From: a virus
Reading direction: 5' to 3' (one strand)
Virus genome (UHGV): UHGV-1359164
DNA: 41,765 nt
The notes beneath the pieces are model-generated. The model saw only the letters and a list, made by a program, of their open reading frames with translations. It ran no database searches and was not told the DNA's origin. A program made the position numbers and the translations under genes. This document shows positions 382-37,620 of the stretch, piece by piece (the first letter of the stretch is position 1; each line of letters opens with the position of its first letter).

Positions 382-1182
382 TTATAGTACTAATCCTGGA
401 TAGTGGAGAGCGCCGTCCTGGTCAGGAGTAAGTACTACTGGTTCAGTTGCCATGCGACCGTCCTGATTCAGGTAGTACCACTTGCCATTGATTGTCTGTA
501 AGCCCTTTAGCATGGCACCGTCGGAGCCGAGATAGTACCAAGACCCTTTGTATTGATACCAGACATCATGAACCATCATGCCGGCACCGTCGAACCAGTA
601 CCAGAGTTTTCCGTCTTTGTACCAGTCATTGGAAACATACTTCCCAGATCCGTCTTTTAAATAGAAGCGCCAGCCGCCATTTTCCTGCTGCCAGCCTTCT
701 ATGATCTTCGGCTTTTCCACGGCTGACCAGGTTTTCATAAACTCTTCCGGAGTTTTATAAAGCTTTTTAATCACACTGGTACCACTTCCCCAGTCTGGAA
801 GTTGAAAATGTGGTTTATCTACAATACTCTTCCAGTTTCCACCCCATTCCAAGCCGATGGATGTGCCGATCGCGCCAACCTTGCTAAAAAATCCATCTGA
901 ATCATAATAGGCGCCGCGGCCATCTGCACGATAAATGTCGAAGGCTGTACCCCACTGGTGATAACTGCTGTAACTGCTGCCTGGGGCATTGGTCACGATA
1001 TTTCCCGGTTTTGTACGCCCCTGAGCATATAAATCATCTTGCTCTGCTTTTGTCCTGAGAGTTTCCCCGATTTTGATCTGCAAGCCTTTGGCGGCACACT
1101 TGGAAATCAATTCTGTTGCCAGCTTCTGTAAACGTGGATGGCATAAAGTAATATCTCTCATAATTTCGCCTTTCTTTTGCAC
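382..1182 (-). CDS. Endolysin: peptidase M15 (L-Ala-D-Glu / D-Ala-D-Ala type) catalytic domain plus C-terminal YG/W-rich cell-wall-binding repeats
   Basis: Motifs 'SYHQWGTAFD' (SxHxxGxAxD) and 'EWGGNW...DKPHF'; C-terminal repeats 'GWRFYLKDGSGKY / GKLWYWFDGAGMM / GSWYYLGSDGAML / GKWYYLNQDGRMA'. Confidence 0.8.
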   Translation of the reverse strand: MQKKGEIMRDITLCHPRLQKLATELISKCAAKGLQIKIGETLRTKAEQDDLYAQGRTKPGNIVTNAPGSSYSSYHQWGTAFDIYRADGRGAYYDSDGFFSKVGAIGTSIGLEWGGNWKSIVDKPHFQLPDWGSGTSVIKKLYKTPEEFMKTWSAVEKPKIIEGWQQENGGWRFYLKDGSGKYVSNDWYKDGKLWYWFDGAGMMVHDVWYQYKGSWYYLGSDGAMLKGLQTINGKWYYLNQDGRMATEPVVLTPDQDGALHYPGLVL

Positions 1183-2538: not shown

Positions 2539-3282
2539 TTATTCTGATGTTAAATAAATTATAGAAAATTCAACGTTTTGATTTCCTGAAGAGAACTGTT
2601 TATTAATTCCTATAGATGTACTTTCGATCATTATAAGATCAGTAACATTTTTCCCTAGAATGTGATACTCACCGATAGACCAAATAGGACGAAAACCTTC
2701 AGGAATATCCATTATTTTGTTGGTAGCAAAAGATGTCATTGCATCAAATTTTATCGTGCCTACAATTTTTACCGTTACAGTTGTCCCAATTTTTTTAATC
2801 TGTGTACCTTTATCAGTAAAGTATGACGAGTCAAATGTGGGATTGCCAATCACTGGCGTTTTTAAATTACTATTTAGCTGATCAAGTTTCTGCCCCATAG
2901 CATAGGCCAGTGCCGCAGAAACACCTTTAGTCGCATCATTGGTCTGTACGCTTACCAGATCGCTGATCTTAAGCAACTTAGTAGCAGCCTGATCTACTAC
3001 CCAGTTTATCAAATCCTGTGCAGAAACTGTACCGCCCACTTCTCCCAGCACTCCGCTGGTATCCTCTGCCTGCACTGATTCCAGGGCTGTAGGGTTAAAG
3101 CCTTTAGCCATCAGCTGATAATTAATGTGATCATCTGTAGGTGTGATGCCTTGTACAGTCTTCAAGGTAATATATGTACTGTTTTCATACATTACCATTG
3201 TAAGTTGTTCATATGCTGTTTCCGGATTATATTCTCCACCATTGGTAAGCATCCACTTACCAAGATCTGTTGTGCTTGCCAC
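2539..3282 (-). CDS. Tail fibre / receptor-binding protein (distal part)
   Basis: GTG start overlapping the upstream TAG ('GGAGGTGGCATAGTG': SD GGAGG, 7 nt, GTG); located after the BppU-like gene. Confidence 0.5.
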   Translation of the reverse strand: MASTTDLGKWMLTNGGEYNPETAYEQLTMVMYENSTYITLKTVQGITPTDDHINYQLMAKGFNPTALESVQAEDTSGVLGEVGGTVSAQDLINWVVDQAATKLLKISDLVSVQTNDATKGVSAALAYAMGQKLDQLNSNLKTPVIGNPTFDSSYFTDKGTQIKKIGTTVTVKIVGTIKFDAMTSFATNKIMDIPEGFRPIWSIGEYHILGKNVTDLIMIESTSIGINKQFSSGNQNVEFSIIYLTSE

Positions 3283-4054
3283 TATGCCACCTCCACTAAT
3301 ACATGGTTATTTTCAACTTTAACTGTTACTGTTTTTCCTTGTTTGCACATCAAATGCCCTGTTGATGCATCCAGATAAAACTCCGGTAAGATCAGATTTG
3401 CATAGGTCCCAGCCTTTTCAGCTTCTTCTTTCGCCTTTTCGCTATAATATTTGCTGTTATCAGTATCTTCCCCTGTTCTGGAACCAGTACCACCCACAGC
3501 ATAGCTTATAGATGATTTATTATATGCCTCTGCCTCTTGCGCTGCTGTCTGAGCATCAAGCATATACTGCCGTAAAGTCTTCTGCAATGTAGGCTCTAGC
3601 TTATCTGCTGTTATTGACCCGTCTACCACATTTGCAGATATAGTCGTTCCATCCAGGTTCATTGCAATAGTCGCTGTACTGGAAACGTTATAAACAAAAC
3701 GTTGGAAGCTGATCTTCTTTATGGTTCCGTCCTGCTGGACCAGTACGAGATTACCGTCTTCGTCCAGATCAAGCTTTGTTGGCATCATCTCAATAGGAAA
3801 ATCTACCGTTTCTACAGTGCCATCCTTATGTGTTACAGTTACAATCCAAGTGGATGTGTCAACTTCCCATCCAGTTATAAATTTGGCCGCATCCGATGCT
3901 TCCAGTTTGTCCTGGGATAGGCCAAGGATATATTGCGCACATTGCAGGATACCATTATCCATATGGCGCAGATTTGTCTTGCCAACTGGTGTGGATGTGT
4001 CCGGGTAGTTCACCCAGCCTATAATGCTATAAAACAGCTCACTCAGCTTCATTC
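3282..4054 (-). CDS. Baseplate/tail-fibre protein with BppU-like N-terminal domain
   Basis: 'MKLSELFYSIIGWVNYPDTSTPVGKTNLRHMDNGI' (the NL.HMD.GI motif of BppU-type N-termini); start taken at internal ATG with AAGGAAG RBS. Confidence 0.55.
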
Positions 4055-4230
4055 TTTGCTTCCTTTCCGGACTGCTGTGGTTTTTCCGGGATTTCTTTAA
4101 CGATTCCACTGTCAAGGATAGCCGCAGCCTGTGCCATAAACTTTATATTGTCAAATCCTTTTACAGCCACCATATTAAGTAGTGCTGTTAAAAGCTGGAT
4201 ATCCTCTTTTTTGTACTCTACCTTAGCCAT
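4039..4230 (-). CDS. Small hypothetical protein between Tal and BppU-like genes
   Basis: RBS 'GGAGGTTGATC' followed by ATG ('MAKVEYKK'). Confidence 0.35.
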   Translation of the reverse strand: MAKVEYKKEDIQLLTALLNMVAVKGFDNIKFMAQAAAILDSGIVKEIPEKPQQSGKEAKNEAE

Positions 4231-6250
4231 GATCAACCTCCACTTTCCGCAGGATAAATTGCAATGCCTTTACTATAACCGGGATGTAATTTATGTACGG
4301 GATGGAATAGTATTTACCATTTTTAGTATACAATGGCATTTCCGTGCCCAGATCTGCACACATTTTTTTTACTTCCTGTGCAATAAATCCCAGGCTTTCC
4401 GCATCGTTTACATTCAGTGCATAGGCTACCGGCCGCAGCCCTTTTATCACTTCTACAGCAAGCTTTTCATGAACATCTCTGATGTCATGCTTTAATCTTC
4501 TGTCTGACCAGGTTTCCCCAGCCATTGATGAATAAACGCTTACACAGCTTATTCGATTAGCATCGATATTTTGGCAGTTAATCGCTCCTGAAAAATCCGC
4601 TCCTGAATTAAATACCGCATTACCTCCAACTTCCAGATGGTTTGTGTAAATCGTACTCGCACCGATGGAACTTGTATTTGCAGTTCCATCAATTTCTGCA
4701 CCGGTAATCTTCAGTTTTCCATTTGCCAATGTAATACTTCCATCATTGGTTTTGAAACTGTTCGCCACCACATCACCTGTAAATGATCCGCTGCTTGCTG
4801 TCAGTTTACCGTCTGCCGTCATAGAGGAATATGTGGAACTCCAGCTAAAACGATTCCCTTTTATGCTGATCCCACCGGTTTCCACCGAAAGCTGATTTGA
4901 TACGTCTCCCTGGCTGACTTTCAGTTCAATCTTATCACTGACTACGTTAATCGCTGATCTCAGTTCTGCTTCCTGACCGGTAGCTCTCGTAACTTCCAGG
5001 GAAATCTGATTAGCCATCTGGGTAAACTTGGAATTAGTTCCCTCTTCCAGATTGGTAAGTTCATTTGATATTTCTTCTACAGATCGTTTAAGGATAGCAG
5101 ATAAGCCTTTTATCTGTATCAATTCACTTTCAATGCTAAAAGGTCTTGATAATTCCTGGCTTCCAGTGCTTTCATAGCTGTCCATAGCTCCCTGAATACC
5201 CGTAAAGGTTCTTTTCATCACAAGGGTATTAACTATCCCGTCTGTAGTCTCCAGACTGATCCTATCCCCTATTTCAATCCACGGTGAACCGTTTGTAGAT
5301 ATGGTTGCGGGCTGGTATTCCAGACCGTTTACGACGTTTTTAATGTTATTGGCAATTCCTATCATCTCTGATGTGGTCTTGCCATATACCAGCATGTTTC
5401 CTTCAATGATATAAACATTTTGACCGTCTCCTGTGCTGGTTCCGCCTATGTCCCCTTCTTCCTGACGGATCTGTACGGTATCTATATCTGGAACTGTGTA
5501 CTCTTCACTCTCGGCATTCTGATAGATTGTGATCCGCGCGGATATATCCTCTTTTTCCGGAAGTGCGATATACCGCAGTTCCCCGTTCTTATTGATGTTT
5601 CCAAATACTCCATTGATCTGGCAGATCTGATGCAGTACTTCCCGCCCTTTCAAAGCTGTAGGATTTATGGTCTTTTCTACCTGTATTTCATCATTAACAA
5701 GAACTGCATTTTCTTCCCGCACACCTACAAATGAACAGAGTGATTTACGAAATGCTTTTAATGTCATTGGAAAACTCAATGCATTATACCAACCGGACAC
5801 ATCTACATCAAAACGCTGCATCCTGTCATAGGCTATTATCTTTCTGGTATTCTTGTCTTCCTGCTTGGGTGTAGACTCTACTTTAAACAAGCCCAGGACC
5901 ATGTTATAGCCACCAAATGACTCTGTAGCCATAAATTCGCGGCCTGAAATACTCTGGGTCAGTCCCGTTACTGTGATTTCAAACTGGGCTGCCTCACACG
6001 ATCCAAAGCTTAGATCTTCGTCTGAACACAGGCTTTCTGTAATGGCAAGGGAATCTGTTACTATCTGATCATCTTCTATGGAAAAATCCACAGCGTCCGC
6101 AGACATTTCAGAAGGATATAAATCCTCTGAAGGATACAGTGTTTCAGACGGGTATAGAGCATGATATTCTTCTTTAAAAAAAGTCAGCTTAAGACTTTTT
6201 CCACCATATTCGTTAAACAGGTCTTTATAAACCTGATCGATCTCTATCAT
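4223..6250 (-). CDS. Tail-associated protein (Tal): prophage-endopeptidase-tail N-domain plus C-terminal peptidase-S74 intramolecular-chaperone domain
   Basis: Located after TMP and a small tail protein; C-terminal 'SDRRLKHDIRD' is the S74 autoproteolysis motif; N-terminal 3x 'LYPSE' repeat. Confidence 0.7.
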   Translation of the reverse strand: MIEIDQVYKDLFNEYGGKSLKLTFFKEEYHALYPSETLYPSEDLYPSEMSADAVDFSIEDDQIVTDSLAITESLCSDEDLSFGSCEAAQFEITVTGLTQSISGREFMATESFGGYNMVLGLFKVESTPKQEDKNTRKIIAYDRMQRFDVDVSGWYNALSFPMTLKAFRKSLCSFVGVREENAVLVNDEIQVEKTINPTALKGREVLHQICQINGVFGNINKNGELRYIALPEKEDISARITIYQNAESEEYTVPDIDTVQIRQEEGDIGGTSTGDGQNVYIIEGNMLVYGKTTSEMIGIANNIKNVVNGLEYQPATISTNGSPWIEIGDRISLETTDGIVNTLVMKRTFTGIQGAMDSYESTGSQELSRPFSIESELIQIKGLSAILKRSVEEISNELTNLEEGTNSKFTQMANQISLEVTRATGQEAELRSAINVVSDKIELKVSQGDVSNQLSVETGGISIKGNRFSWSSTYSSMTADGKLTASSGSFTGDVVANSFKTNDGSITLANGKLKITGAEIDGTANTSSIGASTIYTNHLEVGGNAVFNSGADFSGAINCQNIDANRISCVSVYSSMAGETWSDRRLKHDIRDVHEKLAVEVIKGLRPVAYALNVNDAESLGFIAQEVKKMCADLGTEMPLYTKNGKYYSIPYINYIPVIVKALQFILRKVEVDHG

Positions 6251-6262
6251 CTGCTCCGCTCC

Positions 6263-6676
6263 TTAATACTGGATCATTTCAATGGTTACTTTCTCATAGT
6301 ACATTTCACCGGTGTCATTGTCTGCTATGTGGTCAATAGCAAACTCTGTATCTGGGATATAAAAAGAACCGGTGCCATATACACATGTATCTAAATTCCA
6401 GTAGGTCACTCTGTACTTCTTTTGAGTAGCATCCTGCAGACCATTGGCCTTAATAGAATTAAACAGATCCTTTTCCCTCTGGGATAATGGTCTCAATTCC
6501 AGATTAAGAGTTGTTTTGAAATTAGGAGATGTCACCCTCTGCAAGGACTCATTATTATCTCTCCATGCCTTTTTCTCTATTCGCTGGTCCGGTGTTGACC
6601 TGTACCGGGTAAGGAAACTGTTTGGGAGCTGTGTGTTCCCAAACATTACCAGATAACCTCTATAGTCTTTCTGCAC
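6263..6676 (-). CDS. Small tail protein (Dit-position)
   Basis: Immediately downstream of TMP and upstream of Tal. Confidence 0.4.
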   Translation of the reverse strand: MQKDYRGYLVMFGNTQLPNSFLTRYRSTPDQRIEKKAWRDNNESLQRVTSPNFKTTLNLELRPLSQREKDLFNSIKANGLQDATQKKYRVTYWNLDTCVYGTGSFYIPDTEFAIDHIADNDTGEMYYEKVTIEMIQY

Positions 6677-6686
6677 GCCTTACCTC

Positions 6687-9467
6687 CTACACTAAGACAG
6701 GATTTTTTCCCGTCCTTTTCTTTTCCTGACGGACAAATTTAACAGTAGATGCGCCCATTTCTTTTCCATCCAGATAGATGTATCCTACAATATCGCCACC
6801 ACCCAAGCCGCCGGATTCCTGTAATGCTTCCTTAAGGGCCTGCTTCATGGTAGACAGCGGGGATACAACTTCCGTTTCCTTTTTGTTATCGCCCAGGATA
6901 GCCGCAAATTCACCGGCACGTGGCGGTACTACTGTTCCTGATGCAAGACGTGGAAGTCTAACTGTAGATATATCAAATCCAAAATGCTGACCACCGGCAA
7001 CCGGTGACCATTCCGGGATATCAAAGCTGATTTTATTTAATCCGCTGATAATGCTATTAACGGCGATTTCAACAAGCGCCACAATTCCATTAAAGACGCT
7101 CTTGAAAATGTCTTTAATGCCATTCAGCGCCGTTTCTATATCCAAAGTAAGTACGCCCTGGATAAATTCAAGCAGCCCAGTTAAAACGCCTGTAACGCCT
7201 TCTCCTACAGCACCTACCACTGACAAGAATGTATTAAAAAATCCTCCTATGTTCTCAATAGCATTGCCTATTAATGGTGCAAATGTCTGCACAATCCAAT
7301 CCAATAAGGGCATTAATAATTGATTCCATGCGGCAGTCAATGTATCTGCCAATTGTCCAACCATATCCGCAAAGCTGCTGAAAAACGGCTGTAAATACTG
7401 ATTTTTTACTTCTGTAAATTTATCAGCCACCTTCTGCAAAGCTGGTAAAATGTACGTATTAAAAGCTGTCAATGCGCTTCCATATATCTTCGTAAATCCT
7501 TCTGCAAATGCGTCAAACATTGGAGCTATATGTTCGTCATAGGCCTGATTTATTTCATCCAATGCCACTGTAAACACATCTTTAATGTCACCCATGACCT
7601 GAGCAACAACGCCTAATATATTATCCAAAGCATTTTTGAACTCATCCTTGTTGTTTATAAATGGGGTAGTGAGCGTATCTAAAAAATCTCGACCTGTTTT
7701 GGCAAACAGTTCGCTCAATCCCATAAAAGCATTTGAAAAAAATCCAATCAAATTCGCTGTAAAAGTCTGACCGTTTTCATCTGAGAAAGCGCTAAATACA
7801 TACGCAAAAGCCTCAGAAAAATTTGCTACAATATCCGATATATCACCAGTTATATCAAACATATCTATGATATATTGTTTGATGCGATCCTGAGCATCTT
7901 CTAAGTATTGTGCAAATCCGCCGATCAAATTTGTAGCCAGTGTGACGCCTATAGAAGCAATCGAACCTGCAATGACTCCCAGATCATAAACAACTTTTTC
8001 TCCCCAGACTTTAGCAGCGTTCTGAACTTTAGCATCAGAAAAAATGTTACTAAAGCTGTCTTTTATACGCTGTAATCCACTTATGATGGTTGCAAATCTT
8101 GAAGTTGTGTCTCCAAGACCTACTTTAAAGCCTTTAGCAAATAGCGCGGCTATATCATTCCATTTCTTCTTTACTGCATCTAATGCCTTTGTCAAAGCGC
8201 TGGAAACTGCTACAGTCTCAAACATCTCAGATGGAGATACTCCGCCACTACCTCCGCCATTTCCAGAAGAACTATCATCTTTTTTTACATTTAGCTTATC
8301 AAATGCGGCCAGCTCTTCTTTGGCGTCTTTTGCAGCGCTTCCAGTCTTTTTTAGTGACTTCGCATAATCCTGCTGAACCTTGGTAGCCTTGACTACAGTA
8401 CTTTTCCCTGTCAAAGCCGCCATAAACTGAGCGATTGCCGTAACCGCAGTGTTGAGAAGTCCAATCAAGTAATTTAAATCTGGAGCCACCGCTGACAAAA
8501 TAGGGGCAAACGCTGTTGCAAAGCTGTTCTTTAGCTGAGTAAGTGACGACATCAAACTAGAGATATCTTTATTTGTGTTTCCAGAGTACTGGGCCAAATT
8601 CTTAAAGCCATCAACTAAAGCGCCTCTTATCTTGCTAAATAGCGCATATAGCGATCGAATGCCTAATCCATATTTAATCAGATTTTTCAAACTCAGCGCA
8701 GTGGAGTTCGCATTCTTGCCAATTTTTTTAATTCCATCTGCAGCTTTTTGTGTCATGCCTCCCGCAAGCCTTTTTACGTTGTTATTTAAGGCTGACATTC
8801 TTTTTTGTGCATTATCAATGCCATTGCTATAGTTAGACGTTGATCCCGCTGCATTCTCCAAGATACCGCCATACTCCTGCACCTTCTGTTTTAGAGACAT
8901 AAAGGATGTATTCAGCCGGTTATTTGTATCCTCAAGCTTTTGCTGTTCAGCTTCCAGCTGGGCTGCTGCCTTCTGAGCGGCAGGTGTATCCGCCCCAGAA
9001 GTAAATGCACCGCCACTTTTTTCAAGATCTTCTTTTTCGGCCTTTGCGTACTCAAGGGTCTTTTTCAGCTGTTCAATTTCGTATTGCATGCCAGCATAAG
9101 CTTTGCTGTTCGTTTTGCCTCCGGTGTTTACAAATTTTTCCTGACGTTCAGTCAACGCCGCAAGCTTTTTTTCTGTTTCGTCAATTTGTTTTTGGATCGC
9201 TTTATACTCTTCCGTTGGAATCTTCTGGTTGTTAAACTCTTCAACTTTTTGCTTTAAAGCTTCAACCTTTTTTTCCTGAGCTGCATACTGAGCATTCAGC
9301 TTCGAGAAAGCATCCAGTTGCTTCTGAAGTGCGATCTTGGCTTTATCTCCTACATTACTGACTGTTTTGGCCATACGTTTGGCAGCCAGCTCTATGTCTT
9401 TGGATCCAGCCTTAAAGCCATCATCTGCTATGGTTGTATCGATAACTATTGTTCCATCTGCCTGCAC
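6687..9467 (-). CDS. Tail tape measure protein (926 aa)
   Basis: Size, position after chaperone pair, coiled-coil N-region, Gly/hydrophobic-rich core. Confidence 0.85.
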   Translation of the reverse strand: MQADGTIVIDTTIADDGFKAGSKDIELAAKRMAKTVSNVGDKAKIALQKQLDAFSKLNAQYAAQEKKVEALKQKVEEFNNQKIPTEEYKAIQKQIDETEKKLAALTERQEKFVNTGGKTNSKAYAGMQYEIEQLKKTLEYAKAEKEDLEKSGGAFTSGADTPAAQKAAAQLEAEQQKLEDTNNRLNTSFMSLKQKVQEYGGILENAAGSTSNYSNGIDNAQKRMSALNNNVKRLAGGMTQKAADGIKKIGKNANSTALSLKNLIKYGLGIRSLYALFSKIRGALVDGFKNLAQYSGNTNKDISSLMSSLTQLKNSFATAFAPILSAVAPDLNYLIGLLNTAVTAIAQFMAALTGKSTVVKATKVQQDYAKSLKKTGSAAKDAKEELAAFDKLNVKKDDSSSGNGGGSGGVSPSEMFETVAVSSALTKALDAVKKKWNDIAALFAKGFKVGLGDTTSRFATIISGLQRIKDSFSNIFSDAKVQNAAKVWGEKVVYDLGVIAGSIASIGVTLATNLIGGFAQYLEDAQDRIKQYIIDMFDITGDISDIVANFSEAFAYVFSAFSDENGQTFTANLIGFFSNAFMGLSELFAKTGRDFLDTLTTPFINNKDEFKNALDNILGVVAQVMGDIKDVFTVALDEINQAYDEHIAPMFDAFAEGFTKIYGSALTAFNTYILPALQKVADKFTEVKNQYLQPFFSSFADMVGQLADTLTAAWNQLLMPLLDWIVQTFAPLIGNAIENIGGFFNTFLSVVGAVGEGVTGVLTGLLEFIQGVLTLDIETALNGIKDIFKSVFNGIVALVEIAVNSIISGLNKISFDIPEWSPVAGGQHFGFDISTVRLPRLASGTVVPPRAGEFAAILGDNKKETEVVSPLSTMKQALKEALQESGGLGGGDIVGYIYLDGKEMGASTVKFVRQEKKRTGKNPVLV

Positions 9468-12508: not shown

Positions 12509-12778
12509 TTACTTATTTATGCTCTGCTTATATACCTGGTTCACTCCTGTGGCTGCCAGTCCATTGAACATTCCCACAGAAATCGCTGTAATGTAGTCCG
12601 ATGCCGGGAAATCTGGAATAATTCCCATTCCGACTGCTCCGAGAATTCCGCCAATAACTGCCATGATTACCGGAATCCATTCATCAGAGATTTTTTTTGA
12701 CGCTTTACAGCCCATTCCTATGATGTAGCAGATCATAACGATTGCTATACACGAGCCTAATGTTGAAATGTCCATCAT
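12509..12778 (-). CDS. Holin-like small membrane protein (two TM helices plus charged C-terminal tail)
   Basis: 'LGSCIAIVMICYIIGMGC' and 'WIPVIMAVIGGILGAVGMGII' helices then '...GVNQVYKQSINK'; inside an AT-rich insert in the neck module. Confidence 0.45.
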   Translation of the reverse strand: MMDISTLGSCIAIVMICYIIGMGCKASKKISDEWIPVIMAVIGGILGAVGMGIIPDFPASDYITAISVGMFNGLAATGVNQVYKQSINK

Positions 12779-13088: not shown

Positions 13089-13463
13089 TTACATCAAATC
13101 ATATTCGTTGAACACTTTAAAAATCTTCGGTGACTGAATAGCAAACCAGTCGACCATTTCTTCATTCACAGCCCAACTGTCAGCACTGTTTGAATTGGAA
13201 TCAAGTCCAGATTCGAGCAGAAATGCATGAATGATTTCGTGTCTAACAACCTGCTTCTGATAGCCTTCAAGGTCTGCCTTTGCTCCAATCTGTCCCTGCG
13301 ATGCCTCCATATCATCAACCACAATTTCCCGTGCTGATAAATCAATATAGCCATCTGCATTTGTCAGATTCGGATATTCTTTCTCGTTCCCGAACTTCAT
13401 GCTCCATTCAGAGCCTAAGATATTAACCTTGAAATCCTGCATATAAAATCGGTATCCCTTCAT
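13089..13463 (-). CDS. Small HEXXH (zinc-metallopeptidase-motif) protein
   Basis: 'VVRHEIIHAFLLESGL'. Confidence 0.45.
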   Translation of the reverse strand: MKGYRFYMQDFKVNILGSEWSMKFGNEKEYPNLTNADGYIDLSAREIVVDDMEASQGQIGAKADLEGYQKQVVRHEIIHAFLLESGLDSNSNSADSWAVNEEMVDWFAIQSPKIFKVFNEYDLM

Positions 13464-15802: not shown

Positions 15803-15878
15803 ATCATCCTCCTGGCCGTGTTTATTGACCTGCCGCCGCAGGTAATGGATTAAGCCCGATAGACCACGGGCGGGGTAA

Positions 15879-15950
15879 CTCCGGCAGCCGGATTCGAACC
15901 AGCGCTATGAGAGTCAAAGTCTCATGCCTTAACCGCTTGGCAATGCCGAA
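15879..15950 (-). tRNA. tRNA-Gln (anticodon TTG)
   Basis: Hand fold: acceptor TTCGGCA/TGCCGGA, anticodon stem TGAGA/TCTCA with loop CTTTGAC, T-arm GCTGG-TTCGAAT-CCGGC; no encoded CCA. Confidence 0.7.
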
Positions 15951-16022
15951 AGCTGATAGCCGGACTTGAACCGACAACATATTGATTACAAGTCAATTGT
16001 TCTTCCATTGAACTATACCAGC
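15951..16022 (-). tRNA. tRNA-Thr (anticodon TGT)
   Basis: Acceptor GCTGGTA/TATCAGC, anticodon loop CTTGTAA, T-loop TTCAAGT. Confidence 0.7.
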
Positions 16023-16026
16023 AAAA

Positions 16027-16100
16027 TGGACCGCCAGGGACTTGAACCCCGGACCACCCGGTTATGAGCCGGGCGCTCTGACCAGCTGAGCTAGCGGTCC
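16027..16100 (-). tRNA. tRNA with CAT anticodon (elongator Met or Ile-lysidine; G1-C72 pair argues against initiator)
   Basis: Acceptor GGACCGC/GCGGTCC, D-arm TAGCTCAGCTGGTCAGAGCG, anticodon loop CTCATAA, T-arm CCGGG-GTTCAAG-TCCCTG. Confidence 0.75.
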
Positions 16101-16102
16101 TA

Positions 16103-16133
16103 AAATGCCTGGCATGATTACATACCAGGCATT
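16103..16133. terminator. 9-bp-stem hairpin 'aatgcctgg...ccaggcatt' followed by TTTTA on the minus strand
   Basis: Perfect inverted repeat between 16428..16970 and the tRNA trio. Confidence 0.5.
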
Positions 16134-16427
16134 TACAAGGGGAAAAGAAAAACTCTGCTTATAGCAGCGGAATCCTCGCTGCGGTCGTAAGCCGCATTAA
16201 CAGCCTATCAGCTACGAGGTGAAAGGAGGAAATTCAAGGCCAGTCAAAGCACTTGAATTTTGATCTGGCAAGCGCACGCCGGAAATTTCATCCGCTTTTC
16301 AACCTCCAGGAATGGCCTGTTTATATTAAGGACGTGCGCGGGAGGTGTGTGATAAAACCATGAAAAGTAACCAATCCTCTTCACATCTACATTCTACCAT
16401 TTATCTATAAGTACCTTGTCCACACAT

Positions 16428-16970
16428 CTACAGCATATCTCTAAGCTTATCCACATAGCGCTTCACAAGATCGCGTTCTTCGCGGCATTCTGCGTCCTTT
16501 GACATATCACCGATTTCTGCCGTAAGCCCATCCAAGTGTTCCTCTAATGCGGCCAGCATTTTACGCTTACAGTCCTCTGATTTGCCGGATCGATAGCTCT
16601 GCTTTTGCGTCATGTAATCATCATAAGCATCTCGACCATCGCTCCGGCTGTAATGTCCACGCACATAATGCTCACCACGGCGCATATAGGATGATCCGCG
16701 GTCATAATCTGGCATTCGGCCATCAGAAGCGCTATAACGCCCCATGTTATCACGTCCGCGGCGCTCGCTGTAGTCACCTACACGCATCTGTTCCAAAACG
16801 GTCATATAATACTCGCCCTTTTTATCCCAATACTCTGTGTTTTTAATGTCTTTATACATATCAATCAGCTTAAAAGCCGTGTCCAGATTGCCGGAGGTGA
16901 GGCCTTTTTCAGCAATGTTAGATATCTCATCTTCAATACGTGCACATAAATCTTTAATATCTCTCATCAT
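16428..16970 (-). CDS. Hypothetical protein: helical N- and C-terminal segments flanking an R/G/S/Y/D-rich low-complexity core
   Basis: RBS 'GGAGGTGGG' then ATG; composition only. Confidence 0.5.
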   Translation of the reverse strand: MMRDIKDLCARIEDEISNIAEKGLTSGNLDTAFKLIDMYKDIKNTEYWDKKGEYYMTVLEQMRVGDYSERRGRDNMGRYSASDGRMPDYDRGSSYMRRGEHYVRGHYSRSDGRDAYDDYMTQKQSYRSGKSEDCKRKMLAALEEHLDGLTAEIGDMSKDAECREERDLVKRYVDKLRDML

Positions 16971-16979
16971 CCCACCTCC

Positions 16980-17403
16980 TTATGCTACCCGTGTTACCAC
17001 AAGATTTGCATTTGCTACGGTGATAGCCTGGGTACTGGTATTCTCTACCGCAACATTAAAGCAGCATCCGCGCGGCACATCAATAAAGATTCCGGCAGAT
17101 ACGTTGTTAAACGCTTCTACCGCGGTCGGTGTGGAAATCATCTGGGACGATAAGACAGGCTCACCGCCGATTGCAATAGCAAGAGAAATTGCTTCCGCTG
17201 TTCCTCCAGTCGGCACTGCGATATTCGCAGAAAAGCTAACAAAATAGCGGGCCTTGCACTGATTAGTCATTCCTCTGAGGGTAACAATGCCGCTGCCTTC
17301 CCGGTGCTGCACGCATGCGGTTCCTTTTACAGCGGTGTTGGTATACACCACGTTTCCGTTTGCTGCCACTTCCTGAGCGGCAACAGCTAAATATTCAGCC
17401 ATA
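16980..17403 (-). CDS. Hypothetical beta-rich Ala/Val/Thr-rich protein with CC pair (possible spore-appendage / exosporium-like jellyroll)
   Basis: Start 'MAEYLAVAAQEV' after AGGAGA; C-terminal '...RGCCFNVAVENTSTQAITVANANLVVTRVA' resembles Bacillus Ena/BxpB-type proteins (recollection only). Confidence 0.45.
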
Positions 17404-17539
17404 TTGTTTTCTCCTTTTTCATATCGCAAAAAGGCAGGTCTAAGCCTGCCGATTTGCGTAATACCGGCATTGCGCCGAACATCCAACCATATTGCCGATG
17501 TCAGGAATATGGTTGGAAGATACAGATATGATGTTGTTG

Positions 17540-18310
17540 TCAGCAGTTACAGCCCGTATTGCAGCCGTAATATACGTTCGGGTTCGGCACCTGGTATGCC
17601 GGAATCGGTGCCGGATTGATCGCATTAATGAGCTGCTGGGTCTGTGCTGCCATAGCGGTAGTAAGCAATGCACTCTGACGATCCTGAGATGCAGCACGTC
17701 TGAGATCATTGTTTTCAGCCTGGAGGGAAGAAATCTTCTCGTTGCACAGGTAGTCCAGAATAGCTCTGGTTCCTGCGTTCTGGCTGTCGATAATGTCTCT
17801 GGTGTTGTTGTTCATGGTGTTCTGGAGTGCACAGGTGTTCTGCGCCATGTTGTAATTTACGCCCTGGATTGCTTCCCGGGTCTCGCAGCAGCACTGAGCA
17901 AGCTGCGCCTGGAGTGCGTTAGTGTTCTGCATGTTGGCTACAGTGTCGGCGTTAATAGCCTGCTGGATGCCGAAGCCAGTCTGCATGACGTTTGTATTGA
18001 TGCCGTTGAATCCGGTAAGCATACCGTTATTCATGGCATAGAAGCCATCACACAGGCCGCTGGACAGGCCGTCCAGTTTGCTGATAACTGCCTGGTTGTC
18101 AAAGCCACGCTGGATTGCGGAATCGGTGTATGCGCTTCCGGCTGCTCCACCTCCGCCGTTTCCCCAGCCATTGCCACCCCATCCGCAGAAAGCGAAAATG
18201 AATAAAACGATGAGCCACCAGACACCGTCTCCGCCAAACATTCCATCATTGTTCCGGTTGTTGGTTCCGGTAGCCGCCGCAATGTCGGCTAAGCTGTAAG
18301 TTCCATCCAT
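17540..18310 (-). CDS. Hypothetical membrane protein: TM helix, Gly-rich tract, Q/N-rich region, C-terminal Cys cluster
   Basis: RBS AAGGAGA; 'VWWLIVLFIFAFCGWGGNGWGNGGGGAAG'; 'CCCETR'; C-terminal 'YYGCNTGCNC'. Confidence 0.5.
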   Translation of the reverse strand: MDGTYSLADIAAATGTNNRNNDGMFGGDGVWWLIVLFIFAFCGWGGNGWGNGGGGAAGSAYTDSAIQRGFDNQAVISKLDGLSSGLCDGFYAMNNGMLTGFNGINTNVMQTGFGIQQAINADTVANMQNTNALQAQLAQCCCETREAIQGVNYNMAQNTCALQNTMNNNTRDIIDSQNAGTRAILDYLCNEKISSLQAENNDLRRAASQDRQSALLTTAMAAQTQQLINAINPAPIPAYQVPNPNVYYGCNTGCNC

Positions 18311-18357
18311 ATTGATATCTCCTTTGATTTATTTACATTCCCGGCCAGGATAATGTA

Positions 18358-18579
18358 CTATTTCATGCCGCCCAGCATCCGTTGAAACTGCTGTGCCATC
18401 TGCTGAGCCTGATCAAGCTGCGCCTGTGATATTCTGCCAGACTGCAACATCTTTTGTACCTCAGCTTTTGGGTCTCCCTTAAAGTTTTGCTTAAACTGCG
18501 CAAACTGCTGCATCATCTGCATGGGGCCGTTGCCGCCCATCGGCATGCCGCCGAACATTTGGAATAATGGGTTACTCAT
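18358..18579 (-). CDS. Small Q/M-rich hypothetical protein
   Basis: 'MSNPLFQMFGGMPMGGNGPMQMMQQFAQFKQNF...'. Confidence 0.4.
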   Translation of the reverse strand: MSNPLFQMFGGMPMGGNGPMQMMQQFAQFKQNFKGDPKAEVQKMLQSGRISQAQLDQAQQMAQQFQRMLGGMK

Positions 18580-19036
18580 CTGCTGCCGCACCTCCCTTTG
18601 ATCTCCGGCTCTCTGGTTTGGCAGTAGAGCCGCCGCTTGCTGGAAACGAATTTATCTTGTCCAGAATCTCATTGTATTTGTCAAAAAGGTCCTGGTACTC
18701 TTTACGGGTAACATACATATCATTCATGGCAGCTTCCGGTTGTTTCTGTGGCATTCTGCCGTTTATTTCGTGATACTCAAATACGCGTAAAGGTTGCGGC
18801 ATGCCGGATACATCCGTTGACTTGATGTAAAACCGCTCCGCTTCGCTGTCCATCAGCAGTACGCATGATCCGGGCGCAACAAGGTAAGACTTTGCCCCAG
18901 TCTCTCCCTGCACCCAGAGTATTCCTTGGTTATTTGTCGGTGCCATCGGCTGCGGGACGGGCTGATATTGGTTCATCTGCGCCATACGATCCTGATACGG
19001 CTGGTATGGCTGATACATGTTCGGATATGCTGCCAT
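18572..19036 (-). CDS. Hypothetical protein with N-terminal (YQP)n repeats and conserved central domain
   Basis: RBS GGAGGA; 'MAAYPNMYQPYQPYQDRMAQMNQYQP'; central 'GILWVQGETGAKSYLVAPGSCVLLMD...FYIKSTD'. Confidence 0.5.
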   Translation of the reverse strand: MAAYPNMYQPYQPYQDRMAQMNQYQPVPQPMAPTNNQGILWVQGETGAKSYLVAPGSCVLLMDSEAERFYIKSTDVSGMPQPLRVFEYHEINGRMPQKQPEAAMNDMYVTRKEYQDLFDKYNEILDKINSFPASGGSTAKPESRRSKGGAAADE

Positions 19037-19196
19037 GTTCGATTTCCTCCAATTCTTCCAAAAAGATCAAAATATCGTGGTAATCGGTTTTTATAGGTAT
19101 CTCTACCTCATCGTCATCGGAAAACATCTTCTTCACGCTTATATTTTGGCATAAAAAATAAGCCCCTGACAGTTCGTCAAAGGCTCAATAAAGTAT

Positions 19197-19406
19197 CTAT
19201 AAAGTTCCACATATGCGAATGATCTTTGAGTTTACCCGGCGGCTGATCCGCTTCGCGGTGGCAAGGCTCACATTCATGTTTTCTGCGCAGATCTCCATTG
19301 GCACGCCTGCGGCTCGGTATTCAAATAAAGCTCTTTCCTCTGGTGTAAAATTCGCAAGTTTCCGGAAGTGGTTTAGCTCCGGCACTGTAAAATCATACAC
19401 TTTCAA
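19197..19406 (-). CDS. Sigma-70 region-4-like HTH protein (69 aa, TTG start; possibly a truncated sigma factor or late activator)
   Basis: 'NFTPEERALFEYRAAGVPMEICAENMNVSLATAKRISRRVNSKI' fits the region 4.2 pattern; no ATG in frame; begins 11 nt after the upstream stop. Confidence 0.4.
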   Translation of the reverse strand: MKVYDFTVPELNHFRKLANFTPEERALFEYRAAGVPMEICAENMNVSLATAKRISRRVNSKIIRICGTL

Positions 19407-19417
19407 GATGAGATCTA

Positions 19418-19762
19418 TTACCCCTCACTTTCTATCGGCTCATATGGTAGAGCCAGACATCTATTATAAAGATCTTCGCCTGTTCCATTGCCTCCAAGTG
19501 TCTTGTATGGACGAAACATATACTCAAGATTGTCTCTGTCTTCCAGTGTACAGTACTTACGTTTTAAGTAAAACGTACACGCCTGATAGAGCCGATCATG
19601 GAGAAGTGCCAGAACTCCCGCATTAATAGCATTTGTTCTCGCGCGTTCCGTCTTCAGCTGTTTAGACAGTTTATGATATGCTCCCGAAAGTACTACTGAT
19701 ATAAGGCCAAACAGCCATGATACCCAGTGTGCTGTTATGTACAGTATAATCATTTCCATTGT
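19418..19762 (-). CDS. Hypothetical membrane-anchored protein (N-terminal TM)
   Basis: Start 'MEMIILYITAHWVSWLFGLISVVLSGAY' after AAGGAG; internal start of ORF 19418..19891. Confidence 0.45.
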   Translation of the reverse strand, partial: TMEMIILYITAHWVSWLFGLISVVLSGAYHKLSKQLKTERARTNAINAGVLALLHDRLYQACTFYLKRKYCTLEDRDNLEYMFRPYKTLGGNGTGEDLYNRCLALPYEPIESEG

Positions 19763-19769
19763 ATACTCC

Positions 19770-20165
19770 TTAGTTATGATTTTTCTCCCAGTAATATATA
19801 GGAATTTCTCCCCCGCTATCCCAGGTATCGTATATATGTCCGTCCTGCACACAAACAACATGGCCATCAATGCAAAGTATGTACGTCCCATGCTGATGCT
19901 CCGTGCAAAAATCAGCTACTGTATAGATGTTTTGGATATGATCGTCTATCATATGCCGTCGATATCCCTTTTCTTTTAGATATGCGCCCCATACGTAATT
20001 AGCACTTGGCATATCAGACAGCATACAAGCCTTTACCATGATGCCGGAGAAAACCGTCTCCCAGTCCTGCCCTGTTGCCTTACAGATGGCCCGGATAACG
20101 CAGTCACCTACGCGCTTACCGGCTGGATTCGGATTGTAATACTCCCACTCAACATCATATTTCAT
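19770..20165 (-). CDS. Cys/His-containing small protein just downstream of MuF (papain/NlpC-P60-like arrangement?)
   Basis: 'GKRVGDCVIRAICKATG' (Cys candidate) and 'GTYILCIDGHVVCVQDGHIYD' (His candidates). Confidence 0.45.
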   Translation of the reverse strand: MKYDVEWEYYNPNPAGKRVGDCVIRAICKATGQDWETVFSGIMVKACMLSDMPSANYVWGAYLKEKGYRRHMIDDHIQNIYTVADFCTEHQHGTYILCIDGHVVCVQDGHIYDTWDSGGEIPIYYWEKNHN

Positions 20166-26193: not shown

Positions 26194-27129
26194 TCACTCA
26201 TACCCTTCAAAGCTCAGTTGTCCAGGTGTGTCCCTTTCTTCCATCCACCAGCTAAAAACGTCATTCCCGTCTTTCCACCTAGGTTTTATTCCTGTTCCAG
26301 CATTCCTCATCGCTTCCAGCATTTTGTCAAAAGCTCTGATATACGCTCGCTTGTATGTCGGGAACATGGAAAATTCAAAATACCTGTTTTTTCCTGCCAT
26401 CGGACAGCCTACGCAACCACATCTTGAAAAACCCATGTTATAAAGCGGATTGATATGAATTCCTTCGCCAGCAATGAAGCGTGCTATATCGTAGTCCGTC
26501 CACTCTATTATTGGATTGCAAACGGTTTTGGCTTTTAACTCGCATTTTTCGATGAATTTTCTTTTCTTTGAGTTATCATTCATCAGCATAATTTCCGAAA
26601 TACCTGGGATTGTCATTTGCTCAAATTCTTCAGTTTCCCCTTGATTTTCCGACATTTCCGAATCAGATATTTTTATCCTATCTTTTTTAGCTTTCCCGAA
26701 TACCTCATACTCTCCCCTGTCAGCCCTTGCGCTGCTTTCATCCCACCGCACGCCTGTTGCTATCATTCTGTTTTTACAAGTGCCTTCTTTCAGGTATGCA
26801 CAACAATATCTCGCCCGTCTGGTTGGCGGCATTTTCTTTTTTACAATCAACTGCCACATCGAAAGGGCCGGGTATTGGATTGTACATTTAATTCCCTGCA
26901 TCTCTAATTTTTTGAATACATTTCTAATATGATAAACTGTCTGTGGCGTATCTACGGTTGTATGACTGTGATGTACTTCGAACGGAACGCCGGACCTTTT
27001 AAAAAGTTCCAGAATAACATCTGAATCTTTTCCCCCGGAATATGTACATACAACCGGCGCGCGATAATGGCGCAGGCTCATTTCAGACGCCAGCTTGATC
27101 CTTTCGATTGCTTTTTGTTCTAAATCCAT
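26194..27129 (-). CDS. PAPS-reductase-family (PP-loop ATP pyrophosphatase) protein, phage type
   Basis: 'VVCTYSGGKDSDV' PP-loop; C-terminal 'CGCVGCP' cluster. Confidence 0.7.
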   Translation of the reverse strand: MDLEQKAIERIKLASEMSLRHYRAPVVCTYSGGKDSDVILELFKRSGVPFEVHHSHTTVDTPQTVYHIRNVFKKLEMQGIKCTIQYPALSMWQLIVKKKMPPTRRARYCCAYLKEGTCKNRMIATGVRWDESSARADRGEYEVFGKAKKDRIKISDSEMSENQGETEEFEQMTIPGISEIMLMNDNSKKRKFIEKCELKAKTVCNPIIEWTDYDIARFIAGEGIHINPLYNMGFSRCGCVGCPMAGKNRYFEFSMFPTYKRAYIRAFDKMLEAMRNAGTGIKPRWKDGNDVFSWWMEERDTPGQLSFEGYE

Positions 27130-37271: not shown

Positions 37272-37620
37272 GATCATCCTCGGAAATCCGATATTCTTTA
37301 CCAATGCGGATCGCTGGGAGTTTCTTCTTTCTGATCCACTCCCATACTGAAACCTCGACAGTCAATACAGGTCAAAGGCGGCGCTGAATGTTTTGCCAGC
37401 GATTAGGCATATTGCAGAACCAAAACTGCGAAAGTGGCAAAGTGCTTCAAGAAACGCTTGGTGCGTTCAGGTGTGGTGAAAACCTGCAAAGTACATAGAG
37501 TAAACAAATTTGGCAAGATACTGATGGGAAACGCACTCCTGTCAGTATTTTGGCTTACCTCCATATCTTGAACGGATAATCCGTGCCGTATCCTGATAAA
37601 TAATAGAAAGGAATGTTTCA

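Follow-up and report, generated by a model that had tools for sequence, protein, structure and literature searches.

The described systems closest to the genes dealt with here include phage morons, for the way in which the genes are carried, and the exosporium proteins of Bacillus, for the fold of one of the products. Among the latter, ExsF is a stand-alone trimer, and the N-terminal leader peptides of collagen-like fibres dock in clefts at the trimer interface (PMC12357932). The locus examined is an island of about 4.3 kb (positions 15803-20165) in the virus genome UHGV-1359164, whose whole stretch of 41,765 nt is called the window below; the island extends from the gene for a MuF-like minor head protein to that for the scaffold protein.

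An earlier reading of these letters (the original prediction) had described a block of about 4.3 kb set between MuF and scaffold in a head module of SPP1-like order, and its coordinates, content and gene order hold. The island comprises eight open reading frames (ORFs; A to H in the order of transcription), three tRNAs and a RAGATH-21 RNA, all of them on the minus strand, and a Shine-Dalgarno (SD) sequence is found ahead of each of the eight ORFs. Our comparisons show that it is a patchwork of three independent layers (A-B-C, D-E-F-G-H and a hotspot of noncoding RNA genes) within the late operon of a siphovirus of gut Lachnospiraceae, and that the second layer, usually together with A, is a mobile phage accessory cassette.

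A cassette that moves as a unit between phages of gut Clostridia

ORFs A-H are kept in about 80 close relatives of the phage (IMG/VR), B being variable, and their order is constant: MuF-A-(B)-C-(gap)-D-E-F-G-H-(gap)-scaffold-major capsid protein (MCP). Since all of these relatives carry the cassette at the same spot, it is not a recent insertion in this phage but is fixed in the lineage of the window. Likewise, the GC content of the island (0.42-0.51) lies inside the range of the phage itself (0.35-0.51), so that its composition shows no sign of foreign origin.

The cassette has at least 587 matches in IMG/VR, and a pattern scan of GTDB, with one genome per species, gave 217 confirmed stretches, in hosts that are mostly Lachnospiraceae, Oscillospiraceae and other Clostridia, with a few Bacilli. 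The closest bacterial match for F is from Lachnospira intestinalis (81% identity), and tblastn with this protein retrieved 23 phage records, all from gut metagenomes. A few contigs with the cassette (L098, L137, L152 and L162) had been binned to metagenome-assembled genomes of Collinsella, Prevotella, Paludibacteraceae or 'Ca. Onthomorpha'; these four are probably mis-binned phage contigs and not indicative of true hosts.

The position of the cassette varies from phage to phage. It occupies the MuF-scaffold interval in Dulem virus 35, as in the window, follows holin and endolysin in Bajarodcaudo virus 5 and Dulem virus 33, the receptor-binding protein in Dulem virus 36 and the integrase in Dulem virus 39. 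Of the 45 loci whose flanks reach at least 5 kb either way, head genes lie on both sides in 11 and on one side in two, 12 adjoin a recombinase, seven others have no more than a tape-measure gene upstream and 13 are unclassified; throughout, the cassette is oriented with the late genes. Neighbour clustering and hidden Markov model searches gave the general layout (c10)-(c15 or C)-A-D-E-F-(c42)-G or c9-H or DUF7841-(c8 or c16), in which c10 is a small transmembrane protein and c8 contains an HExxH motif. In 61 diverse loci with full flanks, F is adjoined on the same strand by D in every case, by G or c9 in 60, by H in 49 and by A in 41 (upstream in 33 and downstream in eight); additionally, a small E-type protein is present between D and F in 72 of 83 loci. 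These data show that D-H, usually with A, move between phages of gut Clostridia as a unit, and the variety of genomic positions indicates that they are not a set specific to the head module. The possibility, raised at the outset, that the island is a cassette is thus borne out for D-H (with A), which recur at different positions in different phages.

A complete cassette is also present in Butyrivibrio virus Ceridwen, a phage with no integrase, where it follows the endolysin gene, lies between predicted terminators and has the order c10-like, c15, terminator, A, D, E, F, G, HNH-like insert, H and c16. Only lytic replication of Ceridwen has been observed (PMC7372960).

Every ORF of the island has a match to a PHROG family (E 5e-25 to 6e-63 for A, B and D-H), and the labels of these families read 'unknown function', save for a weak sigma-factor match of C. 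More generally, every cassette family has that same label in PHROGs or is a bare DUF in Pfam, and its members are annotated as 'hypothetical'. Scans of the eight proteins with Pfam, NCBIfam and PADLOC gave only sub-threshold matches, and none of the profiles searched against PDB sequences (A, G, D, F, c9 and H) had a significant match; the view that the island resembles no standard set of phage structural genes therefore stands. Literature searches with the PHROG and DUF identifiers of the cassette families retrieved no paper and, with no curated annotation found either, the cassette does appear to be previously undescribed.

The first layer is set apart from the second by a clear boundary. 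The intergenic distances are 4 nt between MuF and A, 10 nt between A and B and 11 nt between B and C, and 160 nt between C and D; directly after C there is a terminator-like hairpin that would close the MuF-A-B-C unit. Among relatives the C-D gap stretches from 90 to 3123 nt, the portal-MuF gap from 5 to 2851 nt and the H-scaffold gap from 262 to 1150 nt. Genes inserted between C and D include some on the opposite strand, such as a 413-aa ORF that we take to be an IS256-type transposase (positions 6151-9275 of relative L011 are an example of such a gap), and these inserts mark the gap as the boundary between transcription units. Other inserts in the same gap are a 217-aa Cys-rich ORF, which may be an HNH-type endonuclease, and ORFs of about 240-250 aa, which may end in a helix-turn-helix (HTH) domain. 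The hairpin, the use of the C-D gap as an insertion hotspot of up to about 3.1 kb and the RNA hotspot in the 3' part together contradict the single co-transcribed module of the original prediction, in which both the hairpin dividing the island and the RAGATH-21 RNA had been missed.

Predicted properties of the encoded proteins

The start of G was corrected, giving a product of 140 aa whose AlphaFold2 model is confident (pLDDT 92.8) and rich in beta structure. The best Foldseek matches of this model in PDB are the C-terminal domain (CTD) of F-BclA (E 1e-7, TM-score 0.76), ExsFA (0.76) and BxpB (0.74), followed by the BclA CTD. There are 106 PDB matches at E <= 1e-3, and nearly all of the top 50 are BclA-type, ExsFA/BxpB, TNF or C1q structures, the two others being knobs of phage fibres or spikes (8ke9 and 9eul). 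The modelled fold confirms G as a jelly roll of the TNF/C1q superfamily, nearest to Bacillus exosporium proteins. At the level of sequence, the G profile placed four BclA CTD entries on top of the PDB list with non-significant values (E 0.3-0.6), and no Pfam family, BclA_C included, was found at E <= 0.1. The early impression that G recalls Ena and BxpB proteins was therefore half right: the fold is BxpB-like (TM-score 0.74-0.76) and the CC pair is invariant across the alignment, but no Pfam Ena (DUF3992) or F-ENA (DUF4183) domain was found in G or in a c9 representative, and the c9 profile had no match among PDB sequences.

The G family comprises 971 clusters at 50% identity and more than 3000 protein clusters. 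The top 150 representatives are all short (83-196 aa, most of around 140 aa), and in none of them is a fibre or collagen region fused on; a domain fusion that would betray the attachment partner of G was thus not found among these 150. The docking of leader peptides by ExsF is a plausible working model for G, to which both the trimer and the docking would be transferred by analogy. In about a quarter of the loci G is replaced by c9, a Cys-rich beta protein with no known relatives; a comparison of both found no relation, and homology between them was rejected.

Protein A has 131 aa and six Cys, which agrees with the Cys/His protein noticed next to MuF, and its AlphaFold2 model is also confident (pLDDT 92.5). 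Residues C22, H102 and D113 are invariant in 40 diverse homologues and in 98 database homologues; this putative triad is defined by sequence conservation. Foldseek by itself gave weak results, but the modelled fold is papain-like, and A is predicted to be a minimal cysteine peptidase of clan CA. Pfam showed no C39 or C39_2 match, and a lysin-type C39_2 domain was rejected after an hhalign comparison with the neighbouring C39_2 lysin (probability 0.5%). Cleavage by A of a double-glycine leader in E or F is not supported by conservation, with GG present in only 29 of 72 proteins of the E slot and unconserved in the F alignment. Homologues of A (32-42% identity) are also found outside the cassette: amid uncharacterised genes in large Bacillus phages (Tsamsa, KC481682, 9509-9904), near recombination genes in Geobacillus phages (GBK2, KJ159566, 26471-26860), and in Prevotella Lak megaphages. 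The structural neighbours of A are Josephin- and UfSP-like, and its family looks like an uncharacterised but widespread group of small cysteine peptidases in phages.

F is the signature protein of the cassette. From the N-terminus, it consists of an acidic tail, a short hydrophobic segment flanked by Trp, a Gly/Trp-rich linker, a Q/N-rich helical region with a CCC motif and a Cys-rich C-terminus; the window version has one hydrophobic segment, a Gly-rich stretch and 10 Cys. All 66 homologues compared contain both the transmembrane-like segment and the CCC motif, with a median of 11.5 Cys. F is predicted to be a single-pass, Cys-rich membrane protein whose insertion and topology are uncertain; its charge distribution leans to N-out/C-in, without a positive-inside signal.

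In the alignment of D, a disordered N-terminus rich in Y, Q and P leads into a small beta domain, after which come a helix and a charged tail. A match of D to the haloarchaeal virus protein VP5 (E 0.003) covers some 35 residues in the helical stretch just upstream of the charged tail and was dismissed as compositional. E contains 21 Q/N and 12 M in its 77 aa, with a conserved N-terminal M-x-NP-L/M-F motif, and H contains 34 R/K and 14 Y. The features first noticed in D (YQP), E (Q/M-rich), F (transmembrane segment, Gly-rich stretch and Cys cluster) and H (RG/SY-rich core) were all borne out. No hydrophobic stretch of 19 residues was found in D, E, G or H, in an analysis that did not include a dedicated signal-peptide predictor. 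In some loci lacking H, its slot is taken by a DUF7841 protein (c53; seen in L104, L108 and L118), and in many other phages a homologue of c8 sits directly after H; the c8 protein of the window, whose gene lies with those for head-tail joining, may be a cassette member that has become detached.

The two remaining ORFs are less regular companions. The ORF of B reaches position 19891 (157 aa), and the true start is most likely the SD-backed one at 19759 (AAGGAG upstream), also favoured by hydropathy, which would give a product of 113 aa; among the relatives listed, B is found in only four close ones (L010, L011, L014 and L015). For C, the matches are weak and confined to the C-terminal region 4 part of the sigma profiles: Sigma70_r4_2 reaches E 0.07, with 13 bits where the cut-off is 25.7, phrog_1190, labelled 'sigma factor', reaches E 8e-4, and the ECF models of NCBIfam lie at about E 0.1. 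A small HTH protein analogous to C, c15 (Sigma70_r4, E 1.3e-4), precedes the cassette in other phages. Both have about 70 aa, match nothing but HTH profiles of the region 4 type and stand at the head of the cassette. Neither is a sigma factor, because both lack region 2. For the proposed 69-aa sigma region 4-like HTH protein with a TTG start, the likeness to region 4 is below threshold: C is at best an HTH protein of the region 4 type.

Possible roles of the cassette

We tentatively favour the idea that the cassette is an autonomous late-gene module that builds a complex of several proteins, anchored by F, at the cytoplasmic side of the membrane in infected cells. F would serve as membrane anchor and as a helical platform rich in Cys. 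A TNF/C1q-type trimer, formed by G or by the c9 protein that can take its slot, would dock the extended peptide tails of its partners, by analogy with ExsF/BxpB, and D, E and H would supply such tails, aromatic and Q/R/G-rich, on small folded domains. A would trim one or more of the components, and the switch that turns the module on may be the small HTH protein (C or c15). The complex would most likely act at the cell envelope late in productive infection, for instance in egress, envelope remodelling or exclusion, and it is probably neither a part of the capsid nor a sporulation device. What suggests an autonomous late module on the membrane is that gene order and strand are kept everywhere, that the cassette is retained in an apparently virulent phage and that a membrane protein is at its core; it is also suggested by the lack of a long hydrophobic stretch in D, E, G and H, and by the small transmembrane proteins, the small HTH protein and the one or two small peptidases that are often alongside.

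Several points weigh against this proposal. No annotated homologue gives a function, so that everything beyond a conserved mobile cassette is inferred. In the lineage of the window the cassette is embedded in the head module and conserved like structural genes, which would fit a role in the virion too, and TNF-like knobs do occur on phage fibres and spikes. The hydrophobic stretch of F is short (about 13-15 residues) and has no positive-inside signal. Finally, the homologues of A outside the cassette suggest that this protein may have a cassette-independent role.

Two further ideas were examined and discarded. A lysis module was rejected, since an ordinary endolysin gene and a holin-like gene lie elsewhere in the phage; in A-H, no endolysin catalytic domain or holin family was found. 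A CotH-like kinase acting on the RG/SY-rich H was also considered; the 'kinase' PHROG match at 3282-4115 has no CotH or other Pfam match.

A possible, though doubtful, alternative is that the cassette encodes a virion-associated accessory set, with D-H as head fibres or knobs of G trimers, as a coat that could be cross-linked through Cys, or as ejection proteins inside the particle, accompanying MuF; in this last version F would insert into the host membrane upon infection, and ejection proteins often have transmembrane and Gly-rich segments. Such a set would explain the MuF-scaffold position in the lineage of the window and the head genes that flank the cassette in at least 11 diverse loci, together with the late-gene orientation, the strong SD sites and a conservation on a par with that of the MCP. 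Phages also use TNF-like knobs, as in 8ke9 and 9eul, the absence of long hydrophobic stretches from D, E, G and H is as expected for proteins assembled in the cytoplasm, and the swaps of G for c9 and of H for the DUF7841 protein resemble the module exchange of host-recognition proteins. However, most of the diverse loci have the cassette away from the structural module, behind tail or lysis genes or beside recombinases, and in Ceridwen it is bracketed by terminators. Moreover, the phages with the cassette use at least three unrelated MCP families (the SbsC_C type of the window, Phage_capsid_4 and the lambda-E type), two of which already have a decoration protein of their own, the lambda-E type with its own decoration gene, while the MCP of the window has its own Ig-like domain. 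No match to a decoration, fibre or scaffold family was found in Pfam, PHROG or NCBIfam, and the short top 150 representatives of G carry no fibre shaft. The capsid decoration entertained in the original prediction is weakened by the diversity of MCPs and by these positions.

A bolder reading, which we regard as rather unlikely, is that the phage builds a self-assembling protein layer convergent with the construction of the exosporium, with F as anchor, G as docking trimer, D, E, H and c9 as a matrix rich in Cys and Tyr, and A as maturation peptidase, together making up a structure that could be cross-linked. Such a layer would either line the membrane of the infected cell from within or surround progeny particles, and it might, for example, organise assembly and egress or harden virions for exposure to oxygen and for transit between anaerobic guts.

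It is unlikely that the cassette is a prophage moron for superinfection exclusion or defence, in which F and its partners, placed in the membrane of a lysogen or an infected cell, would stop other phages from entering or abort their infection. The position next to an integrase or recombinase, often at a prophage end (12 of 45 loci), the membrane protein at the core, the small HTH gene of its own (C or c15) and the swappable slots would suit such a function, as would a weak coiled-coil match of F to ZorA in PADLOC (E 7e-4, 16 bits). Nevertheless, no member has a significant PADLOC match, the cassette is always co-oriented with the late genes and here lies inside the head operon, it is found in all of the about 80 close relatives instead of patchily, and it is present in Ceridwen, which lacks an integrase.

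We consider very unlikely a cargo directed at sporulation, made in the mother cell and entering or altering the spore coat or exosporium, even though the nearest solved structures to G are the exosporium proteins F-BclA CTD, ExsFA and BxpB and the hosts are mostly Clostridia. Coat and exosporium proteins share the richness in Cys and in Q, Y, R and G that is seen here in proteins without a long hydrophobic stretch, and BclA is trimmed proteolytically on attachment, which would give A a role. Against this, a complete cassette is carried by a phage of Butyrivibrio fibrisolvens for which only lytic replication has been observed, a finding that also weakens the sporulation cargo of the original prediction; to our knowledge, neither this species nor its genus forms spores. 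Likewise, the closest bacterial match of F is in a Lachnospira genome and one relative of G is from Eubacterium ramulus, and we do not know either of them as spore-formers. The orientation is that of late lytic genes, and no protein of the cassette belongs by sequence to the BclA_C, Ena, F-ENA or CotH families.

Finally, a collection of unrelated small accessory genes hitch-hiking at a permissive site, without joint function, may still describe B and C, given that the MuF-scaffold interval and the neighbouring gaps are insertion hotspots, that B occurs in few relatives, that HTH genes like C are patchy among the diverse loci and that A also occurs alone, but it is most improbable and largely refuted for D-H, since independent hitch-hikers would not keep order and strand across positions and hosts as D, E, F, G/c9 and H do (D in 61 of 61 loci, G or c9 in 60 of 61).

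The cassette is one of the commoner conserved gene sets in phages of the dominant Clostridia of the human gut. That a module of five to eight genes is kept both in an abundant lineage and in an apparently virulent phage suggests that it likely serves a step of the infection cycle absent from textbook phage biology. The link to the fold of an exosporium anchor, the dedicated small protease and the Cys-rich membrane protein offer concrete hypotheses, which the cultured pair of Ceridwen and B. fibrisolvens DSM 3071 makes directly testable.

Surroundings of the cassette and relation to described systems

The features of the window are collected in the table. The minus strand holds every gene from 11 to 24.5 kb, transcribed in the order 542-aa ORF, 476-aa ORF, MuF, island, scaffold and 402-aa ORF. 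The names terminase, portal and MCP are taken from the annotation of homologues at the same positions, and family scans of our own were made for MuF and scaffold.

Features of the window UHGV-1359164, in the order of transcription of the late genes, followed by more distant genes
Feature	Positions	Strand	Description
PAPS-reductase-domain protein	26194-27129	-	Pfam E 8e-21; upstream of the terminase gene
Terminase candidate, 542-aa ORF	24453-22825	-	Dulem virus 35 homologue annotated as terminase
Portal candidate, 476-aa ORF	22825-21395	-	Dulem virus 35 homologue annotated as portal protein
MuF-like minor head protein	21387-20170	-	Upstream flank, outside the island; Pfam Phage_min_cap2 E 9.5e-71; phrog_581
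A	20165-19770	-	131 aa, predicted minimal papain-like cysteine peptidase
B	19759-19418	-	113 aa from the likely start, N-terminal transmembrane segment; phrog_4105 E 2e-32 over residues 55-152 of the long ORF
C	19406-19197	-	69-aa HTH protein, weakly sigma-70 region 4-like, TTG start
Terminator-like hairpin	19187-19159	-	13-bp stem and T run; directly after C, in the C-D gap
Small ORF starting MKKMFSDDDE	18930-19136	-	Putative gene running into the start of D; begins much like the small ORFs of the c50 family ('MFSDEVLEKIF...') that precede D in other loci
D	19036-18572	-	154 aa, core member; phrog_21718 E 1e-37
E	18591-18358	-	77 aa, Q/M-rich; phrog_22984 E 5e-25
F	18310-17540	-	256 aa, signature protein; phrog_16490 E 5e-55
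Short GC hairpin and T run	17433-17450	-	Between F and G; possible attenuator
G	17402-16980	-	140 aa, stand-alone protein with modelled TNF/C1q-like jelly roll; phrog_20016 E 4e-57
H	16970-16428	-	180 aa, helical ends around a disordered core rich in R, G, S and Y; phrog_28802 E 6e-63
RAGATH-21 RNA	16340-16271	-	Lies after H and ahead of the tRNAs; full-length match to RF03097 of Rfam (model positions 1-76), 79 bits where the gathering score is 70.3
Hairpin	16103-16134	-	14-nt arms; directly upstream of the tRNA trio
tRNA, CAT anticodon (Met or Ile2)	16100-16027	-	ARAGORN; Rfam, 67.9 bits
tRNA-Thr (TGT)	16022-15951	-	ARAGORN, Rfam
tRNA-Gln (TTG)	15951-15878	-	ARAGORN, Rfam
Scaffold protein, GP20 family	15802-15167	-	Downstream flank, outside the island; Pfam Phage_scaffold E 4.2e-22; phrog_194
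MCP candidate, 402-aa ORF	15147-13939	-	Dulem virus 35 homologue annotated as major capsid protein
HExxH protein (c8)	13089-13463	-	124 aa; phrog_1233; head-tail joining region
Holin-like gene	12509-12778	-	phrog_1129; among head-tail connector genes
Endolysin	382-1182	-	End of the tail module
FuFi-1 RNA	37392-37551	+	RF02986, 145 bits; phage early or regulatory region

The only Pfam match of the MCP candidate is an S-layer SbsC_C (Ig-like) domain at its C-terminus (residues 321-401, E 1.3e-15), which, going by this match, amounts to a putative built-in decoration of the capsid surface. The holin-like gene and the endolysin gene are some 11 kb apart, an unusual split of the lysis genes.

The third layer of the island is a hotspot of RNA genes upstream of the scaffold gene. 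The Gln/Thr/CAT trio of tRNAs was recovered as the same three genes by two methods, ARAGORN and Rfam, with 57-69 bits in the Rfam tRNA model against a gathering score of 29. It had also been described as bounded by hairpins, which is so ahead of the tRNA with the CAT anticodon, where the arms have 14 nt, but on the far side there is a hairpin of only about 5 bp. RAGATH-21 occurs at the same place in the seven relatives tested with Rfam (78-92 bits) and, by nhmmer, in at least 39 loci, including the distant L001, L134 and L135; it could mark a processing site or be the leader of the transcript with the tRNAs and the scaffold gene. Literature searches for RAGATH-21 found no paper on this RNA, and none of the papers listed by a wider search on RAGATH and FuFi-1 dealt with it.

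Behind RAGATH-21 come one, two or three tRNAs, and which ones these are varies with the phage (Met, Tyr, Ile-TAT, Gln, Thr, Leu-TAA, Asn, Ser and Gly). Thus, there are at least nine tRNA identities in this slot among syntenic phages, for example at 12250-12322 in L010, 12244-12335 in L017, 12210-12279 in L049 and 12246-12320 in L065. Some of the calls are odd: one 'tRNA-Tyr' measures 92 nt and has its anticodon at position 39, and calls in L065 and L125 have anticodons of two bases. One relative has a ROOL RNA of 574 nt (384 bits) between two tRNAs (L066, 12310-12870), and in two others GP20-b leader RNAs are found directly upstream of the scaffold genes (L134, 13961-14025; L135, 12445-12509); additionally, relative L017 has a skipping-rope RNA at 16683-16785. 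The hotspot documents a free exchange of tRNAs and of RAGATH-21, ROOL and GP20-b elements upstream of scaffold genes.

Compared with described systems, this 3' part is an ordinary case of the familiar phage tRNA clusters and hotspots of structured RNAs (RAGATH, ROOL/GOLLD near tRNAs and GP20-b leaders), and is unusual only in that the identity of the tRNAs changes freely among syntenic relatives. For A, the closest described proteins are the C39 double-glycine peptidase domains of PCAT/ComA transporters and other small clan CA peptidases (staphopain, Josephin); unlike the C39 domains, A is a stand-alone protein of 125-131 aa that is not fused to an ABC transporter. G shares its modelled jelly roll with ExsFA/BxpB and the BclA CTD (Foldseek E 1e-7 to 1e-5, TM-score 0.66-0.76) and, as in ExsFA/BxpB, it is a stand-alone protein of around 140-170 aa; in contrast, sequence identity to ExsFA, BxpB and BclA is only 10-15%, G has neither the collagen repeats and stalk of BclA nor an exosporium leader and, unlike the exosporium proteins, it is encoded by phages, including one of Butyrivibrio. 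Judging from their models, G and A are thus new and highly divergent members of known fold superfamilies, whereas the cassette as a whole matches no described system. As with phage morons, it is self-contained and found at varied positions in permissive sites (after lysis genes, at prophage ends and between head genes), sometimes with its own terminators and a small regulator. Unlike typical morons, it is larger (five to eight genes), far more conserved, fixed in an abundant lineage and also present in an apparently virulent phage.

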